Under the pieces are notes generated by a model. That model had not been told where the DNA came from and did no database searches. It was given only the letters and a program-made list of their open reading frames with translations. 64,000 nt of DNA, taken from the NCBI GenBank assembly GCA_963750165.1, contig CAVVPN010000012.1, forward strand, positions 288,001 through 352,000, written 5' to 3'. Shown piece by piece: positions 5,512 to 33,579 of the stretch. The stretch comes from an uncultured Gemmataceae bacterium (GTDB taxonomy: Bacteria > Planctomycetota > Planctomycetia > Gemmatales > Gemmataceae). A program made the position numbers and the translations under genes. Position 1 is the first letter of the stretch. Each line of letters begins with the position of its first letter.

Positions 5512-5840
5512 GCTGTGGCCCCCGCGGTTAAATACACTTCGGCCACTTCGGTGTACACTTCCTCGCCTGGGCTTTTTTCAAATTTGATCTCGTACAATCT
5601 CCTGCCGCCCACCCCGAGGCCGCCGCGGTCCTCAACCACTCTCCCCGTGACCCAGCCGCTGCCAAAGGGGAAGGAGACGAGATCCCCGAACTTAGGAGGC
5701 GCCGAACAACAACTTCCAAGAGTAGGACGGCTCTCCAGAGCCGTCGGGACGGCTCTGGAGAGCCGTCCTACGAAGTTGTTGTTCGGCGCCTCCTTATACC
5801 GGGGCGGCGGCGGTTTCCCAGGTCTCTTGATCTTCACCAT
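5505..5840 (-). CDS. Small SH3/KOW-like protein carrying an in-frame MITE insertion
   Basis: Paralog of 14623-14855 (GDLVSFPFGSGWVTxRVVEDRGGLGxGGRR); 34 extra codons come from the element at 5695-5793; stop overlaps the SNF2 start. Confidence 0.7.
   Translation of the reverse strand: MVKIKRPGKPPPPRYKEAPNNNFVGRLSRAVPTALESRPTLGSCCSAPPKFGDLVSFPFGSGWVTGRVVEDRGGLGVGGRRLYEIKFEKSPGEEVYTEVAEVYLTAGATAC
5695..5793. mobile_element. 99-bp MITE with 22-bp TIRs, TTA duplication and an internal GTAG-type REP palindrome
   Basis: TIR ggaggcgccgaacaacaacttc / gaagttgttgttcggcgcctcc; tta at 5692-5694 and 5794-5796; inner gtaggacggctctccagagccgtc-gg-gacggctctggagagccgtcctac. Confidence 0.88.
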
Positions 5841-6011
5841 GAGCAAATTCCCTCACCAGGGGTAATACCCCGTTCGCTGTCGCAGCAAGGGAGCCAAGGG
5901 AGCCAACGTTTGCACACATCGAGATGCGGCGCCCTGGCCGCGTGGGAGTGGCACGGCGCGACAACCAGCGGCGGCGGTTGCCACAGCAAGGACGCCAAGA
6001 ACGCCAAGAAC

Positions 6012-6551
6012 GCCAACTTTTTCATACGTCGAGATGCGGCGCCTGGCAGCGCCGGCCTGCCGTTTGTGGGCCACGCGACTGCGAACCGCGCTGGAGCACC
6101 CCGGCCTACTGCCTGGAAGTCAAGGACTCCCAGTCGGCCGAAATCGCCACCAATGGTCCCCTGGTTGGCGTTAGCGGTTCCACAGGCGATACGCTTGCGA
6201 CGGCAATAGGCAGACCTCGAACCGGTAACTCTACCCTGCGGTTACCGTACCTGGACCAATCGGGCGCGTCAACCCGGCGAACCCCCTCCCGCCCTGAGCG
6301 ACAGCAGGAACAGCCACAGCCCCGCGCTGGTGGTCTGGAGGCGTGGTCCGCGCTGTGTTCCGCTCGACGTGCGTGATGGATCATCTGCCAGCAAGTGATG
6401 GCCTGGTCTTCTGACCAAGCCACGCGGCCCGACCGAAGGTCTCCTCCGGGATGCCGGGGAGACCTTCGGTCGGGCACGCTGACACGGTCGGGAGACCGTG
6501 CCACAATGGGGTAAATGAACCTGACCCCTTTCTCCTCTGCTTTCTCCTCTC
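6012..6551. repeat. ~540-bp direct repeat, copy A (relics of HEPN and SNF2 genes plus a REP hairpin)
   Basis: Aligns by eye with 14003-14544 with scattered substitutions; the minus strand encodes LPSQAYRLW, NANQGTIGGDFGRLGV and LFLLSLRAGG fragments. Confidence 0.88.
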
Positions 6552-13703: not shown

Positions 13704-14002
13704 GGAAAGCCTCTTCTGAGGTCGAGGTAAAACGGCCTGAGGGGAAGGCGGCGTGATAATGGGTCTTGGCCGACGGGTGGGGCGCCCTTCGCACTGCCTG
13801 AAATCCTATAGGCCACATTTCCGGTCAAGTCAAATGCCCATCGCTTGTGTCCTGGTTTCCTCAGCGAAGCGGCGGGAACTGCGGCAGGTAGGTGCCGCGA
13901 GAGCGGTTCGCACGCGGATCGCGCACGCGGTGGGACGGCGGGCACAGCTTGACCAGCAGGGGCCTGCGCTGTCGCAGCAAGGGGGCCAAGGAGGCCAAGG
14001 GG

Positions 14003-14544
14003 GCCAACTTTTTCATACGTCGAGATGCGGCGCCTGGCAGCGCCGGCCTGCCGTTTGTGGGCCACGCGACTGCGAACCGCGCTGGAGCACCCCGGCCTAC
14101 TGCCTGGAAGTCAGGGACTCCCAGTCGGCCGAAATCGCCACCAATGGTCCCCTGGTTGGCGTTAGCGGTTCCACAGGCGATACGTTTGCGACGGCAATGG
14201 GCAGACCTCGAACCGGCTAACTCCACCTCTGCGGTTACCGTACCTGGACCAATCGGGCGCGTCAACCCGGCGAACCCCCTCCCGCCCTGAGCGACAGCAG
14301 GTACAGCCGCAGCCCCACGCTGGTGGTCTGGATGCGTGGTCCGCGCTGTGTTCCTCTCGACGTGCGTGATGGATCATCTGCCCGCAAGTGATGACTTGGT
14401 CTCCTGACCGAGCCACGCGGCCCGACCGAAGGTCTCCTCCGGGATGCCGGGGAGACCTTCGGTCGGGCACGGTGACACGGTCGGGAGACCGTGCCACAAT
14501 GGAGTAAATGAACCTGACCCCTTTCTCCTCTGCTTTCTCCTCTC
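14003..14544. repeat. ~540-bp direct repeat, copy B
   Basis: Aligns with 6012-6551. Confidence 0.88.
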
Positions 14545-14866: not shown

Positions 14867-15445
14867 TTACCAGGGATAACCCCCTGTGACGGATTGTATG
14901 TATGTCCGGAGTACCCGATCCATGGATCGTGCCAGGCGGTCGCAGCCGCGGCGCCAGCGCCGTACCCTGGCCAGCTGCAGGACCGTGGTCCCACCAAGGA
15001 AGGCTGGGTCAAACAGCTGGTGGGCGATGGCATTCCTCCAGGTATTCAGTTCGTCCAGCCACCGCCTGCGCAAGTGGTTGTTCGCGAAGACGGTATCGAC
15101 CTGCCCCCAGAGGTTTTGCACCCCCAGCCGCCCGAAGTCACCGCCGATGGTTCCCTGGTTGGCATTTTTGCTGTCGAGTTGACGGTTCCACAAAAAGTCT
15201 TGCCGCGTCGTGTAGCGAAATCCTGGGTGGGGGATGACCGCCACCAACAGAAAAACCGCCTCCGTGTGCAGGTCGCGGCAAAAGCCCTGGAACTGCGACG
15301 CCAGCAGGACGGCATACATCCGGTTCACCTGCTGCGTGGCATTCCGGCCGCGCGCCGACCCACCGAGCAGCGCGTGGGCGGCCTCCAGATGATCCAGTTC
15401 CGTGGCCCGATCCCGGCTCCACAGGCGATACGCTTGCGACGGCAA
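14867..15445 (-). CDS. HEPN-domain ribonuclease (RiboL-PSP-HEPN-like)
   Basis: VLLASQFQGFCRDL and RxxxxH motif WRNAIAH; TTG start (LPSQA) after GAGGG. Confidence 0.8.
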   Translation of the reverse strand: MPSQAYRLWSRDRATELDHLEAAHALLGGSARGRNATQQVNRMYAVLLASQFQGFCRDLHTEAVFLLVAVIPHPGFRYTTRQDFLWNRQLDSKNANQGTIGGDFGRLGVQNLWGQVDTVFANNHLRRRWLDELNTWRNAIAHQLFDPAFLGGTTVLQLARVRRWRRGCDRLARSMDRVLRTYIQSVTGGYPW

Positions 15446-15661
15446 CAGGCAGCCCTCAACGGTTCCATCCTCCGCCAAAGACAGCGTAGCCAACGAAATG
15501 GCGTCGTGTCAACGCCCGGCGCCCTGCGTTCGCGGACTGGAGGGGACTGCAACGCTTCTGACGGCGGCGGACCGCGAACGCAGGGCACCCGGCGGTACAC
15601 TTGATCCGTATTTGCCTCGCGAATCATGGGTTAGCAGCAACGTCCCCGTTTTTCATTTTTC

Positions 15662-15935
15662 CTGACCGTCACGGAATTTGGGGCGGATGACTCTTCGCCT
15701 TGGGTCTTTACGCCGAAGGCGTTGCATCCCAAAGCCCAGGGTCGCGCAGCGCACCCTGGGAACCGAGCGCCCGTGGTGAACGTCTACGCCGAAGGCGTTG
15801 CATCCAGGTGATCCAACCCCTTCGGGGTAAATTCCTTACGGTTGTTTGCGGTTCCCAGGGTGCGCTGCGCGACCCTGGGCTTTGGGATGCAACGCCTTCG
15901 GCGTAAAGACCCGCCCCAAAATCCGTGACGGTCAG
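15662..15935. mobile_element. 274-bp MITE, copy 1, with 8-bp target duplication
   Basis: TIR ctgaccgtcacggaatttggggcgg / ccgccccaaaatccgtgacggtcag; catttttc at 15654-15661 and 15936-15943; long internal palindrome. Confidence 0.92.
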
Positions 15936-15948
15936 CATTTTTCCGCAC

Positions 15949-16059: not shown

Positions 16060-16300
16060 GGCCACCGGGTGCCGAACAGGCTCAGGACGAATGGCGGACG
16101 CGGACCGACTTCCGGGGAACCAGGAACGGAGGGACCGATGAAGGAGTTGCGCCTGGGCAAGGGGCAGGTGTACCCGGTCAGCGACGAGGATTTTGAACTG
16201 GCGGCCCGCTCCTGTGGCGGGTGCGGCGCGGTTACGCCGTGGTGCCGCAGCGTGCGTCAATTCCTGGCGTGGGCCAGGTGCGACAGAAAATAGAAAAGGC

Positions 16301-16339
16301 TTGACAACTGCCCCATGTTTACCTAAATTAGTGAACATG
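16301..16339 (+). promoter_or_regulatory. Sigma70 promoter with overlapping operator; probably a leaderless transcript
   Basis: TTGACA (16301) - 17 bp - TAAATT (16324); ATG at 16337; inverted repeat catgtttac...gtgaacatg spans the -10 box. Confidence 0.75.
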
Positions 16340-16666
16340 ATCGTCACGTCGTTCGCCAGAGAGGTGAAACGACTTCGCGCCGAGCGCGGCTTCACGATTC
16401 GAGATTTAGCAGCCGCGACGGGGAAAAGCGTTGCCTACCTGGCAAAAATTGAAGTTCAGGGGGAAATCCCTGCACCTGAGTTCATCTGTGAATTGTGCCG
16501 TGTGCTAGGTGCAAACCCTGTTGACATGCTTCGGTTGGCTAAAGAAACCAAACTGTCAGCGGTTTCAAGACAAATTGACCGAGAGCATGAACGTGCATTG
16601 ATTGCTTACAGCCAGTCCGAACTATGCAACTCCGCTGAACATCAACGTGAGAAAGGGGACATTAAA
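16337..16666 (+). CDS. XRE-family HTH regulator, in frame with the downstream ParA as assembled
   Basis: FAREVKRLRAERGFTIRDLAAATGKSVAYLAKIE; no stop before the ParA ATG. Confidence 0.75.
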
Positions 16667-17526
16667 ATGGCTACTGTTCTGAGCATGATCAACATGAAGG
16701 GTGGGGTGGGGAAGACGACGTTGGCGATGCACCTCGCTCACGCGGCAGACAAGATGAATCTGCGGACGCTTGCAGTTGATCTCGACCCGCAGTCCAATCT
16801 GAGCCAGGCACTCATGGGGCCGAAAGCTTATGTTGATTATCTGGCGAAGAACAAGCCAACGGTCGTCAAGATTTTTGATGAATTGGTACCGACTCATTCC
16901 GCCAGCGATTCCCCACATTTGCTTGACACCAATAATGTTGTGGTGAAAAAGGCGGGTTATTGGGGTGACAGCACCCTCGACTTGATCCCGAGCCGACTGG
17001 AACTCTCTAGAACGCTGAAGAACCCAGCGCAGAAGGAGCGACGATTGGCGAAGGCACTCACCCAGGTTCGCGATCTGTACGATCTCGTGATTATCGACTG
17101 CGCCCGACCGAATCGGTACTGACCGATGCGGCGTATTTCGCGAGTCGTTACGTTGTTGTTCCGATCAAGCCAGAGTTTATGGCCACCATCGGATTGCCCC
17201 TGCTTGCTCGGTCTCTTCAGGATTTCCGGATCGAGAACGAAGACCATCAGATTGAGATCGCCGGCTTGGTTTTCAACCATTCGTCGAGCTATTCCAGCGG
17301 CCCTGAAGGCCAGCATTCGATCAAGGACGTTACCAAAGTGGCCACTGAGAATGGTTGGCACATCTGTGAAAATCAACTGAGGTACTCGGCCTCTTACGCG
17401 AAATCGGCACGTGAGCGAACTCCGCTTTCGCGGACGAGTTACGCGCGAGGTGATGTGGTCCAAGGGTTCCGCCGCTTGGCGGATGAAATTTTCACTCTCA
17501 TCGGCATTGCAGAGGTGACGGCGTGA
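16667..17526 (+). CDS. ParA/Soj-family ATPase (frameshift near 17103)
   Basis: NMKGGVGKTT, VDLDPQSN, YDLVIIDCAP(TESVLT); own AAAGGGG RBS; one C missing in a C run. Confidence 0.88.
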
Positions 17527-18043
17527 ATGACGCTCTCCTTGAACTCGAACTTCGATTGCTGATCCTGAAGTACGGTCACCAAAAATTGATCCAAGTCTTA
17601 GCCCGTCTTGGAGATCAGACACATGAGGAACTGGAACAGCGTCTCAGAGAGGCGGAGGAGAAGCGACGAACTAAGCGCCCAAAACCCTCGATTATAGACG
17701 TGGTGGCTTCCGAGTGCCGCGATCATCCCGACATTGAGGAACCTCTTCGGTTGCTCGCTGTCGGCTTCCAAAATCGTACGTTTCTTCCAAACCTTCGTGA
17801 TGTACAACGTTTTCTCGAACGGACTAACTCGAAACCTGGCAAATTGAAATCACGCGAGGCGGCTATTCCAGTGCTTTTTCGTTCGCTCGGCAAGTTAACC
17901 CGTGACGAATTGCTTGACCTTGCCCAAAAGAACGATGTTTCCGGTGACAGTGATTTTGCAATACTGCGCGAGAGATCATGAAAGCGCGGGGAGGGAACAG
18001 GCCGAGGCCGTTGAGACCCGACGATAAACCGAGAAAGAGTTGA
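17523..18043 (+). CDS. Hypothetical helical protein coupled to ParA
   Basis: GTGA overlap with the ParA stop; ends at 17981 as assembled, or 18043 if a 1-nt deletion near 17965 is an error. Confidence 0.65.
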
Positions 18044-18101
18044 TCGACTGTAACCGGAAAACGAACACTGACCATTCTACGGCAACATAATTGGCGGTAC
18101 A

Positions 18102-18136
18102 AAAGGAAAAGGGGACATGAATGCCCCTTTTCCTTT
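18102..18136. terminator. Hairpin between convergent operons
   Basis: aaaggaaaagggg-acatgaatg-ccccttttccttt. Confidence 0.6.
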
Positions 18137-18146
18137 CCGAAGATAT

Positions 18147-18701
18147 TCAGGGGAGGCCAATTCGTGACAGGAAACTTGCGAACCTCTGTGAAATATCCTC
18201 GCGGTACAAGTCGCCGACCTTGCAAACGAACTGTTTTCGCTTCAGCTTTTTTAGATAGTTTGTGTTCACGGAAAAATAGTGCTTGAAGTCGATAACTGAA
18301 GGAACGACCGAGATCTCGTCAGGAAACGAGAGGTAATGAAATCGAGGCGTCTCGTTCTTTCGGAGGTTTTCTCCCGGTGATTTTTTACTGTTGATCTCCA
18401 TCATTTTCATGGAGAGTTCGCTGAGGTGCTGCCCCAGATAGACATGCTCGGCGTTGTACAGTGGTGCCACTAACACGGAAAACAGCAACTTGTCCTTGCT
18501 TGCTGCATTTTCGCCAGCTTTACGGACTTTCGAGTCTTGTTCGAGGTCGCAGTCTTGGGTGAGAACAATCACAAGCGGGAAAACGATCTTCGAGATCTCG
18601 AAGTTCCCCTTCGACTCAATCGCGTATTCGATAAATTCCACGTCACGGAATATGTCACCCTGGCATATCCGGTTTTCGCATTTTTTCCTAACTTTAATCA
18701 T
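18147..18701 (-). CDS. Hypothetical protein with a TQDCDL motif, MazF/PemK-like pattern
   Basis: QGDIF...VIVLTQDCDL...VLVAPL...VIDF...YREDISQRFASFLSRIGLP. Confidence 0.75.
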   Translation of the reverse strand: MIKVRKKCENRICQGDIFRDVEFIEYAIESKGNFEISKIVFPLVIVLTQDCDLEQDSKVRKAGENAASKDKLLFSVLVAPLYNAEHVYLGQHLSELSMKMMEINSKKSPGENLRKNETPRFHYLSFPDEISVVPSVIDFKHYFSVNTNYLKKLKRKQFVCKVGDLYREDISQRFASFLSRIGLP

Positions 18702-18945
18702 TGATGATCTTCGCCTTGATCACGACGCGCCTAGGTTTCCCGGTGCCGTACTTGACGATTTCCTTCTCGACCAACTCTTCAAATTTCACAACCGCTATCT
18801 TCGGTGTCACCTGCCCTGCCCGCTCCGGCTCCGTTGCCTGGGTTCGATCCCCCTGTTCGTCCTGCTTCCGTTCTGGCACCGTCGATTGCGTTCGCTCCCC
18901 TTGCTCGTATTGAGGGGAGAAAATGCCTTCCTGTTCAGCCACCAT
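18694..18945 (-). CDS. Small hypothetical protein with a disordered N-terminal half
   Basis: 83 aa, overlaps both neighbours; repeated QGERTQST / QGDRTQAT. Confidence 0.6.
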   Translation of the reverse strand: MVAEQEGIFSPQYEQGERTQSTVPERKQDEQGDRTQATEPERAGQVTPKIAVVKFEELVEKEIVKYGTGKPRRVVIKAKIIND

Positions 18946-19730
18946 TCACCCCCATTTTCGCAAAGGCCGTCTTTGATCACGCTCTCGAAAAGCGCGTTAA
19001 TGCGGTCGTGCAAGATGTTCAGGTATTTTTTTATGTCCCCCTGGCTCATCACGAGGTTGGTATACGCGTCGGTGTCCATCACGAATGACTTTTTACGTAT
19101 CACCGCCGGATAGTCCTCATTCGGCATGCCGAACTGGAACCGGATGGCGACCTCTCCGTCGTTTGTTTCGAGGATGTTGAAGGTTCGCGTAACCGTTTTC
19201 CGATCCTGGGCGAGATTGAAACCCGCCAGCAGATCCGCGTGCAAGTAATCGCTCCATTCCGTTGGATTGGTTTCGTCCAGTTCGATGTGATCGACGTACC
19301 GCAAGCCGACACGGCTGACCATGATGTCGCCGTACGAATGATTCAGCGCATCGACCGCCGAGAGGAAATCCTCGCAAAGCAACTCGAAGTTTTTGTAGGC
19401 GCTGATTTCGATCGCGAGAAAATCTTCCGCGATCACCAGGAATTTGTCCCTGTCTTTCGCGTGGAAGAGCCATTCGTTTCTTTGGCCCTTCAGTTCCTCG
19501 TTTTTTTTGCCTCCGATGCGCAGCGAGTGGGCGATCAACTTCTTCACCTCGGCGATCGGGAAACGGCTCTTGATTGCGCCGATGAACGCTTTTGCAGGAC
19601 CTTTCAGCTCCATCTTTACGTCCGAAAAATCCACGCGCACGACAACCTTCTTCAAGAAGTTTTTCTTATACTTCTTGCGGACCGGCGGTTTGCCGGGCAC
19701 ATCGACCTTGCCGGTCGCTCTCTTTGCCAT
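18935..19730 (-). CDS. TIGR04255-family protein
   Basis: YKKNFLKKVVVRVDF, YKNFE, RVGLRYVDHI, FVMDTDAY, LHDRINALFESVI. Likely true stop near 18935; the ORF runs to 18807 as assembled. Confidence 0.8.
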
Positions 19731-20827
19731 TTGATAATCTCCCCGTCGCAGTTCGGTGGTTTTTGAAGATTATAGCGCTGTGATCGTCTGTAATCCAGAA
19801 ACTTCTGCGCATCGGGACATTTCGATTTGTTCCCCGCGTTCCGGTTGTAGGGGCCTTTTTGTGCCGCAGGGGAAAAGGAATCCTCCTCGCCTAAATAGTG
19901 GCGGCGAAATTCCTTGAAATCAGTTCCGGAAATCGACGCTTGAATACCCAGTCGCCTGGGGGGTCGTCTCGGCGATGCCTCGGAACGCTTGTATGCCCCC
20001 TACGTTATTCTGGTGGAGAATCAGCACTAAATCACTTCCGGTATTCGCAGCCCTTCCCGGCGCCGAGCCCGCTCCCCGCCTCCGCAACCCCACCGCCGCA
20101 TCCACCCCCACCCCGGTTACAATCGCCCCGTCGCCCCACCACACCGGAGTCGCACCCATACTCGTTCAAGCCCTGCAGCCGTCGGCAGCGTCCGCAAGGG
20201 CGACTGGCTCGGCCTGCCCGAACCCGAAGCCCACTCCCTGACCGCCGCCGGCGCCGTCCGCCCCGTCACCGTCACCCTGACCGCACCCGATGCCAAGGCC
20301 GGGATGCCCTTCGACCCGCGTTCCCCGTTCCTGCCGCCCGACCCCAATGCGCTGGAACCCGCGCACCACCTGTTAATCAGTTCATTCTAGCGTACTGGAG
20401 AAGCTGTTTCAACTGGCGGCTGTGGCCGGTTCCACCCTGACAGTCGGCGGCCCCGCCGACGCCCCGCGCCTCCTGCTCCTGGGCCTACTGGAGCAGTTGG
20501 CGGCTGGGAGTAGCGGTGGGTGGAGTGTGGTGGCCCTGTTACTCGGGCTGGCAGCATGGGGCACGGGACGGCACTGGGTTCCGACACCGTGGCCCGGTGG
20601 CCCGGTGGCCCGGTGACTCTTCCGACGACCCGCTACACCCGCCCGCAAACTGCTCTAATCGAGTCCACCGAGGCGGCCCAACAGGGGTTGGGGGTGTGGG
20701 TCCTTCTCCGCCCGGACGTGGCACGGGCTGGCCCACGGGGGGGGGTGTGTGGCTCAGCGTGAGATGAAAAGCCAAGCCAGGGAACTATCAGGGGTTATTT
20801 CATCTCGCGACCGTGAGATGAATCCGG

Positions 20828-24452: not shown

Positions 24453-25948
<1,496 letters not shown>

Positions 25949-26230
25949 GGGGGACTGCTCCGGAAATGAGGGGGAGATGGGGGGCGATGGGGTCACAACA
26001 CCATACATATTTTCGCAGCAGGCGCAAGGGGAAGGTAGCCTGGTAGGCGGCCCGCAGCCCCGGCCCACCGCCGTGCTGTCGCCGCCTGGCACGCCGCCGA
26101 GGGCCACAACCGCGTTATCGCGCTCTGAAAAGCGCCCTGAAACCGCCGAAATCGCATCAACAAACATGCAAAATGACGGCTCGGCGCCTGTTTCGCGTAC
26201 TGTTTTCAGGACTTTTTTTGCTGTTTTTTC

Positions 26231-26504
26231 CTGACCGTCACGGAATTTGGGGCGGATGACTCTTCGCCTTGGTTCTTTACGCCGAAGGCGTAGCATCCCA
26301 AAGCCCAGGGTCGCGCAGCGCACCCTGCGAAACGAGCGCCTGGGGTGAACGTCTACGCCGAAGGCGTTGCATCCAGGTGATCCAACCCCTTCGGGGTAAA
26401 TTCCTTACGGTTGTTTGCGGTCCCCAGGGTGCCCTGCGCGACCCTGGGCTTTAGGATGCAACGCCTTCGGCGTAAAGACCCGCCCCAAAATCCGTGACGG
26501 TCAG
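26231..26504. mobile_element. 274-bp MITE, copy 2, with 8-bp target duplication
   Basis: Same TIRs as 15662-15935; gttttttc at 26223-26230 and 26505-26512. Confidence 0.92.
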
Positions 26505-26600
26505 GTTTTTTCAGCCCCCCAGTGGTGGGGACCAGGCGAGTGGATGGCCGTGTTGACCAGGCCGGTGGATCGGACGGGATCGAGCGTGTTTCGAGTTGGT

Positions 26601-29016: not shown

Positions 29017-29175
29017 CCGCCTGCCCTCTGGCTCCCCTGGGTTCCATCCAGGCCATCATACCCCGGCAGGCGACCCAGGTGGAATACGGGAACTGCGATC
29101 ACCATAAAACACCAACGCCGAGGCCCGGCCCGCAAGCCGAACCCCGGCGTCCGTGTGTCATCGCTGCCCCGCGCC

Positions 29176-33579
<4,404 letters not shown>

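Follow-up and report, generated by a model that had tools for sequence, protein, structure and literature searches.

Toxin-antitoxin-chaperone (TAC) systems are among the few defences in which phage sensing is understood. The closest described systems, HigBAC and CmdTAC, are TAC systems with SecB-like chaperones (10.1101/2024.02.24.581848; PMC11618068). In the accessible text of these papers, they resemble the locus analyzed here in having three coupled genes (for a toxin, a third protein and an antitoxin that bears a disordered tag) and in exchanging their toxin-antitoxin pairs. They differ from it in several ways: the genes here run controller, antitoxin, toxin; the tag common to the trios lies at the N-terminus and is rich in Ser/Thr, where theirs is an aromatic element at the C-terminus; the predicted controller best matches phosphagen kinases; and the putative toxin has a predicted MazF fold. 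A three-gene operon with a candidate toxin and a candidate tagged antitoxin is present here, the latter carrying its disordered Ser/Thr-rich part at the N-terminus and its conserved motif at the C-terminus.

Two further defence systems are comparable in part. DS-42 (PRO1), a validated three-gene system of E. coli found with DefensePredictor (PMC13092281), comprises in the accessible text a 238-aa unknown protein, a 190-aa protein and a nuclease-type third gene, with overlap of the first two genes; its third gene encodes an MBL hydrolase, whereas gene 3 here has a predicted MazF fold. The N-terminus of the 190-aa protein has a Ser+Thr fraction of 0.275, and a profile comparison of DS-42 gene 1 (a one-sequence alignment) with TIGR04255 detected no homology, its probability of 0.8% falling below shuffled controls. 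The GajC protein of type II Gabija, which takes part in phage defence, is MazF-like but divergent and carries an insertion (PMC13069673, as far as its accessible text goes); it is likened to gene 3 by description only, and is paired with a UvrD helicase and not with TIGR04255 and a small partner. At least 8 TIGR04255 rows are predicted defensive in the accessible part of DefensePredictor Table S4.

Among the publications searched, no main text names TIGR04255, while bioRxiv supplements and most subscription papers may list the operon; literature on TAC systems, tripartite MazF-like systems, DefensePredictor and guanido kinases or McsB held no description of the trio. The trio is a genuine module, so far undescribed, and a putative variant of three-part toxin-antitoxin systems, and there is a fair chance that TIGR04255 trios define a new class.

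Identification of the three-gene operon

We analyzed a window of 64,000 nucleotides from an uncultured Gemmataceae bacterium (GCA_963750165.1, contig CAVVPN010000012.1). An original prediction made from the letters alone had proposed a defence module of three co-oriented overlapping genes in AT-richer DNA. All three open reading frames were found at the predicted places on the minus strand, forming an operon of 1.6 kb (Table 1) in an island whose GC content lies below the 0.664 of the contig, and each gene is single-copy in the genome. The gene content of the window, which includes a DUF1559 prepilin, points to a planctomycete host. The prediction that the module matches no described system also stood: Pfam, NCBIfam and PADLOC gave no match beyond TIGR04255, with none for genes 2 and 3. 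The PADLOC search that had been proposed, run against PADLOC-DB 2.0, yielded 0 matches for the 3 proteins, and likewise 0 for 23 further TIGR04255 and 7 further QxCD proteins. Sequence searches of the PDB gave no significant match, a search of the ESM Atlas returned unnamed clusters only, and a viral fold library gave a single unnamed match (E 1e-7).

Table 1. Positions of the operon, its parts and nearby defence-type matches in the window
Feature	Position	Strand	Remark
Gene 1, TIGR04255 protein	19730-18807	minus	307 aa as assembled; likely controller/sensor
Gene 1 frameshift	18950-18966 (near 18960)	minus	likely assembly indel
Gene 2, mostly disordered 83-aa protein	18945-18694	minus	likely antitoxin
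Gene 2 leader, aa 1-46	18808-18945	minus	FxxxY, then polar Ser/Thr-containing stretch with private QG(E/D)RTQ repeat
Gene 2 C-terminal motif, YGxxKPxRxxI(R/K)AxI	18697-18753	minus	conserved in relatives
Gene 3, 184-aa QxCD protein	18701-18147	minus	predicted MazF/PemK/CcdB fold; likely toxin
QDCDL motif of gene 3, aa 49-53	18543-18557	minus	after strand 2; C51 invariant
AT-richer island containing the operon	17001-20000	none	GC 0.50-0.53
DUF5131 and three-Cys-motif partner TcmP pair	7258-9492		matches PADLOC candidate PDC-M30A/B
RiboL-PSP HEPN match, weak	14867-15493		E 5e-4
PDC-M02A match	28528		

Conservation of the trio

To define the spread of the operon, we examined 83 gene 3 loci (3 from viruses and, out of 99 in genomes, the best 80), which span many bacterial phyla as well as methanogenic archaea. 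TIGR04255 lies directly upstream of gene 3 in 77 of the 83, and the trio is thus a conserved unit, as had been proposed. Among the 6 loci without it, 3 are cut by contig ends, two (L015 and L083) keep genes 2 and 3 and lack TIGR04255, and the remaining one is a lone truncated gene 3. A script located the middle gene in 77 of the 83 loci; that of L066 and a divergent one in L002 were added by eye. In the 66 complete loci the gap between genes 1 and 2 is always at most 10 nt, as is that between genes 2 and 3 in 64. The trio is present on 3 viral contigs and on one annotated plasmid, where it adjoins an abortive-infection gene. Correlations between the identity matrices of the three genes (0.39-0.54) show shared inheritance only. 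A conserved fourth gene was considered and rejected, none recurring around the relatives.

The TIGR04255 protein and its predicted fold

Gene 1 had been assigned to TIGR04255, and NCBIfam bore this out (E 1.7e-34 over aa 20-256; 119.8 bits, above the family cut-off of 30 bits); we take IPR026349 and CHP04255 to be labels of the same family. Its last 50 residues are not homologous to the relatives, the homologous part stopping near 18963. Four close relatives end in TDGxRxKMGV plus 3 residues, and at the end of gene 1 the next frame of the window reads KMGVNGG followed by a stop at 18935; gene 1 so corrected would overlap gene 2 by 11 nt, within the range usual for relatives. The 307-aa length is due to the frameshift. 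Since rpoC, an essential gene of the same window, is also split into frame-shifted pieces, an assembly indel is the likely cause, a real mutation being the alternative.

The predicted model of gene 1 (aa 17-256, pLDDT 94.1) had no clear match in Foldseek. In a wide structure search the top matches were AdoMetDC (Z 7.7, partial), McsB (Z 7.6, 174 residues aligned over the whole model) and phosphagen kinases. In a second search the first 12 rows were all phosphagen kinases, led by an arginine kinase (Z 8.9, 179 aligned residues, rmsd 3.8, model 1-240 on chain 117-364), with McsB at Z 8.1; AdoMetDC (Z 8.2) and TBP (Z 7.2) scored as well. The model moderately favours an ATP:guanido phosphotransferase fold that spans the whole catalytic domain of McsB and phosphagen kinases (PF00217; PDB 6fh1, 8wtc, 4rf8), with 165-186 residues aligned and one conserved central-strand Arg matched by eye. 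TIGR04255 differs from these kinases in its 7-13% identity, in giving no profile match, in lacking NEEDH and the catalytic Cys and in its gene context. PF00217 was not matched among the families listed for 77 TIGR04255 members, and a profile comparison with McsB gave a probability of 0.2% with a shallow McsB alignment of 21 sequences.

We then compared 62 diverse TIGR04255 members; residues are numbered as in the model, the full open reading frame adding 16. Y96 and F232 never vary, R128 is an Arg in 59 members and a Lys in 3, R124 is kept in 56 and D/N131 in 61, and D203 and D205 are found in 55 and 54 respectively; R16, R78 and R166 are conserved in the clade of the window only. The NEEDH motif, the catalytic Cys and the ATP-binding Arg set are functional motifs of McsB and phosphagen kinases. 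NEEDH, CP and GTGxRxS are invariant in the 21 McsB sequences, whereas neither NEEDH nor CP has a conserved counterpart in the 62 TIGR04255 sequences and, apart from R124 and R128, the full ATP-binding Arg set is not conserved there. As a set, the conserved R124, R128, D/N131, D203 and D205 are more in keeping with an enzyme site than with a passive chaperone, and the simplest reading is that TIGR04255 retains a site for binding phosphate or metal but not the complete kinase set.

The middle protein

The middle protein had been described as small and disordered, which holds: within its 83 aa, residues 14-46 include only 6% order-promoting residues. The QG(E/D)RTQ repeat to which the prediction had pointed is present twice in gene 2 and absent from all 77 related middle proteins found by script in the 83 loci (39-119 aa, median 63); as a functional tag it was rejected, being private to this copy. 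These relatives carry FxxxY at the N-terminus in 43 of 77 cases, KPxRxx[IVLM] in 68 and YxxxKP in 66, P71 is invariant in their alignment, and their leaders have a Ser+Thr fraction of 0.193 against 0.116 in 481 controls. As judged from these alignments, the conserved features of gene 2 are the predicted C-terminal KPxR strand and the Ser/Thr-rich leader, not the repeat. Tagging of the Pup/PafA kind was also considered and rejected, the C-terminus of gene 2 being variable.

A long N-terminal extension was flagged in 12 out of 150 gene 3 representatives, and the KP motif occurs in 3 of these 12 compared with 2 of 481 controls; one of them, P0205, also carries FxxEY. Because these apparent fusions carry the KP motif, they suggest that gene 2 can be fused to gene 3 and that the two therefore work together, with read-through errors as another possible source; a profile built on the motif failed to place them above controls. 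A complex prediction of TIGR04255 with two copies of gene 3 and gene 2 as partner scored 0.83, compared with 0.00 and 0.00 when the partner was replaced and 0.77 when TIGR04255 was replaced, which missed the required margin and led to no call.

A predicted MazF-fold protein with a QxCD motif

A MazF/PemK fold had been expected for gene 3, and its predicted model (pLDDT 90.8) agrees. Foldseek matched it to MazF (E 2.5e-4), and the top 15 rows of a wide structure search were MazF, CcdB, Kid and ToxN-type toxins, the best with Z 9.9 over 104 aligned residues (rmsd 2.7) and the first unrelated row at Z 3.9. PF02452 matched neither gene 3 nor the 54 relatives scanned, and a profile comparison of QxCD with MazF gave a non-significant probability of 0.7% with a shallow MazF alignment of 12 sequences. 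On the strength of its model, gene 3 is a predicted MazF-fold protein outside PF02452. It resembles MazF, PemK, CcdB, Kid and ToxN (PF02452; PDB 8zws, 4mzm, 1vub) in predicted fold over residues 10-182 and in the motif order GD, xP, VAP and C-terminal helix, and differs from them in being ~70 residues longer, with a long beta-hairpin replacing the strand 1-2 loop, in lacking the RP and PxT motifs, a MazE-type partner and any Pfam match, and in having an invariant Cys.

The listed motifs GDIF, VIVLTQDCDL, VLVAPL and VIDF and the C-terminal helix are all present. QDCDL had been placed at the catalytic loop of MazF; it lies instead after strand 2, in the place of MazF S/Q-N-D-x-x-N. The Arg of RP and the Thr of PxT are what we take to be the catalytic pair of MazF. 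FP at positions 41-42 of gene 3 stands at the RP place (a match by eye), and an alignment on the VAP motif with 12 PemK-family proteins put Y82 opposite the T of PxT. Across 101 diverse relatives, position 41 holds F, Y, L or I and position 82 holds Y, F or H; neither in these 101 nor in a set of 67 does R or T occur at 41 or 82. Invariant in the 101 are Q14, C51, G90, R120, D138, K140 and R173, while Q49 is kept in 100, H122 in 99 and D52 in 98.

Gene 3 is unusually conserved, with 61-79% identity among its best 120 relatives, and 1,912 relatives were found at E<=0.001 (1,342 clusters at 50% identity), with no match in annotated phages. Archaeal-type relatives (L066 at 5602-6543, P0138 and P0170) have an extra N-terminal domain of ~90 aa.

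Exchange of third genes behind TIGR04255

We surveyed TIGR04255 in 401 genomes of the host's phylum and in 401 genomes of the class to which the genome of L016 belongs. It was matched in 72 and 49 of them respectively, a patchy spread, and in 0 of 14 control genomes. We inspected 29 foreign loci from each survey, namely the best 29 in the first and, in the second, all but one of 30, the exception being from an unpublished genome; a coupled second gene was evident in 28 (by eye) and 27 of them respectively. The only survey loci of the clade of the window were L156, L190 (the same locus as L016) and L200.

Third genes could be compared in 41 cases. As many as 24 are QxCD-type (QGD plus [Q/H/N]xCD), which answers the suggestion that the neighbourhoods of TIGR04255 homologues be surveyed for the QxCD gene; the others encode PIN (4), HNH (2), YhaV (1), PemK (1) and DUF7689 (2) proteins, and 7 have no family assignment and look ART/RES-like by eye. 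Toxin-type genes are thus exchanged behind TIGR04255. The second genes of these trios are unrelated to each other, many carrying HTH domains. Their residues 2-41 contain 19.7% Ser+Thr (n=52), compared with 19.3% in the clade of the window (n=77), 11.6% in the 481 neighbours and 10.2% in the 41 third genes. The start codons behind these figures were chosen mechanically, and p-values for this enrichment are overstated by the lack of independence among related genomes. An internal control points the same way, the leaders of the second genes having a Ser+Thr fraction of 0.199 against 0.116 in their own last 60 aa.

Several subtypes were seen in these surveys. A common one comprises TIGR04255, a long-leader HTH protein and a 250-280-aa [Q/H]xCD protein extended by a further C-terminal domain (L143, L147, L150, L152, L153, L155, L180, L182, L185, L186, L197, L198, L204 and L207). 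Another pair recurs downstream of TIGR04255 in L154, L158, L163, L165, L194, L202 and L209, consisting of a WD/NG-motif protein and a partner of 125-150 aa that is ART/RES-like by eye, with no Pfam match. In L141 (2229-3125) and L144 (2226-3096), TIGR04255 is followed by a WFWAL helical protein and DUF7689, a place that suggests that DUF7689 may be a toxin.

Proposed mechanism and alternatives

The leading reading, which we rate as evenly balanced, is that the trio is a three-part anti-phage toxin-antitoxin system, related to TAC systems in mirror order and with a different controller. Gene 3 would be a MazF-fold toxin held off by the gene 2 antitoxin, whose C-terminal KPxR strand would bind it. 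TIGR04255 would be made just before the antitoxin, grip its Ser/Thr-rich leader in the kinase-like sheet and keep it stable. Serving as the sensor, it would respond to a phage protein or a nucleotide change by which the antitoxin is displaced; degradation of the displaced antitoxin would free the toxin during infection. The target would likely be RNA, cut or modified at a rebuilt active site that may comprise C51, D52, R120, H122, D138, K140 and R173. This control logic is borrowed from that shown for CmdTAC and HigBAC in the accessible text on them. A toxin role of gene 3 is likely, the predicted fold being that of known toxin-antitoxin toxins. In favour of the reading as a whole are the co-occurrence and tight coupling of the three genes, the exchange of toxin-type genes behind TIGR04255, the shared leader composition, the patchy spread with viral and plasmid copies, and the DefensePredictor rows. 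The apparent loss of the MazF Arg/Thr pair and the non-significant MazF profile alignment count against a toxin-antitoxin reading, the polar residues conserved in TIGR04255 count against a passive chaperone role, and L015 and L083, with genes 2 and 3 and no TIGR04255, count against a three-part system.

The nature of the controller separates two of the alternatives from this reading. As the main alternative, TIGR04255 may be an active enzyme of phosphagen/McsB fold that phosphorylates, or modifies in some other way, Ser/Thr of the leader or Arg of KPRR and thereby switches the stability of the antitoxin and with it the toxin. The full-length structural matches, the conserved R128, D203 and D205, a resemblance of RxGLRY to the invariant GTGxRxS of McsB (mapped by eye) and a shared leader tag rich in phosphorylatable residues would all suit such an enzyme; we consider it unlikely in view of the missing sequence-profile link to McsB, the NEEDH and CP equivalents that are not conserved, the restriction of R16, R78 and R166 to one clade, and the scores of AdoMetDC and TBP, by which a Z of ~8 may reflect a common arrangement. 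Highly improbable in our estimate is an ordinary TAC system, in which TIGR04255 would be a very divergent SecB-like chaperone and the C-terminal motif of gene 2 its chaperone-addiction element. The original prediction had pointed to a chaperone, and the overall three-part logic, the aromatic residue conserved in the gene 2 motif and the four-strand, long-helix layout of the C-terminal half of the gene 1 model, which we take to be SecB-like, agree with it. The best structural matches instead span the whole protein and are phosphagen and McsB kinase domains, the gene order is reversed and the tag common to the subtypes is N-terminal and Ser/Thr-rich. Two further results weigh neither way: SecB is absent among the matches listed in three structure searches of the gene 1 model, and an uninformative profile comparison with a shallow alignment of 7 SecB sequences gave a probability of 0.1%.

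Two other alternatives concern what the module does. An addiction module that stabilises mobile DNA, with no anti-phage role, is improbable: 14 of the 141 nearest neighbours of the relatives are transposases, recombinases, integrases, a terminase, a group II RT or TraD, and copies occur on plasmid and viral contigs, but plain addiction would gain little from a third, controlling component, phage defence is described for both of the E. coli TAC systems characterised in the accessible text on them, and TIGR04255 is predicted defensive by DefensePredictor. It is quite improbable that gene 3 is non-toxic and has put the MazF fold to another use, either binding or chemistry based on Cys, within a complex of the three proteins, as the lost catalytic pair, the invariant C51, H122 and the unusually high conservation might suggest, given that PIN, HNH, YhaV and canonical PemK proteins fill the same slot behind TIGR04255 elsewhere.

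Under the preferred reading of a three-part anti-phage system, a controller of non-SecB fold that works with many toxin types by way of a shared tag would amount to a new platform for sensing, TIGR04255 would gain its first function, and a large MazF-fold family that lacks annotation and has rebuilt its active site would be exposed (the 1,912 close relatives and 1,342 clusters above). We tentatively extend this to the possibility that TIGR04255 marks a widespread undescribed class of immune operons, in which a kinase-fold sensor reads or phosphorylates a portable Ser/Thr-rich tag, a second independent solution to the TAC design. If so, it would arm QxCD MazF-fold, PIN, HNH, YhaV, PemK, DUF7689 and ART-like effectors, the QxCD proteins being the main one and a MazF-fold superfamily with new chemistry. 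Intact copies of the operon exist in cultured environmental strains, among them those of L016 from Ectopseudomonas toyotomiensis and L023 from a Shewanella sp., and, at this size, are quickly testable.

Genomic neighbourhood

The original prediction had placed the trio in a defence-rich region, and the window supports this: within ~18 kb of it lie PDC-M30A/B, PDC-M02A, a SWIM-SNF2 pair, PIN, Xre/MbcA and a weak HEPN match. Around the relatives, restriction-modification or other PADLOC matches account for 22 of 92 neighbours and 15 of 60 loci, a hand-picked set with no matched control. Convergent with the trio, 16193-17981 encodes an HTH and ParA-type ATPase, which is split near 17120-17180, and, coupled with it, a 152-aa unknown protein, a locus possibly covered by a preprint on ParA-like NTPases in immunity, as far as its accessible text goes (10.64898/2026.10.19.760177).

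Several repeats were also found in the window. A 570-bp repeat has one copy at 13975-14544 and another (96%) at 5984-6551. The 3' end of rpoC occurs as an exact 958-bp duplicate at 24453-25410 and 29172-30129, and the two copies flank ~3.8 kb with an AAA_25 protein and DUF4365, either an integrated element or a misassembly. Long palindromic repeats, REP-like and present in both orientations, lie at 15656-15943 and 26225-26512.
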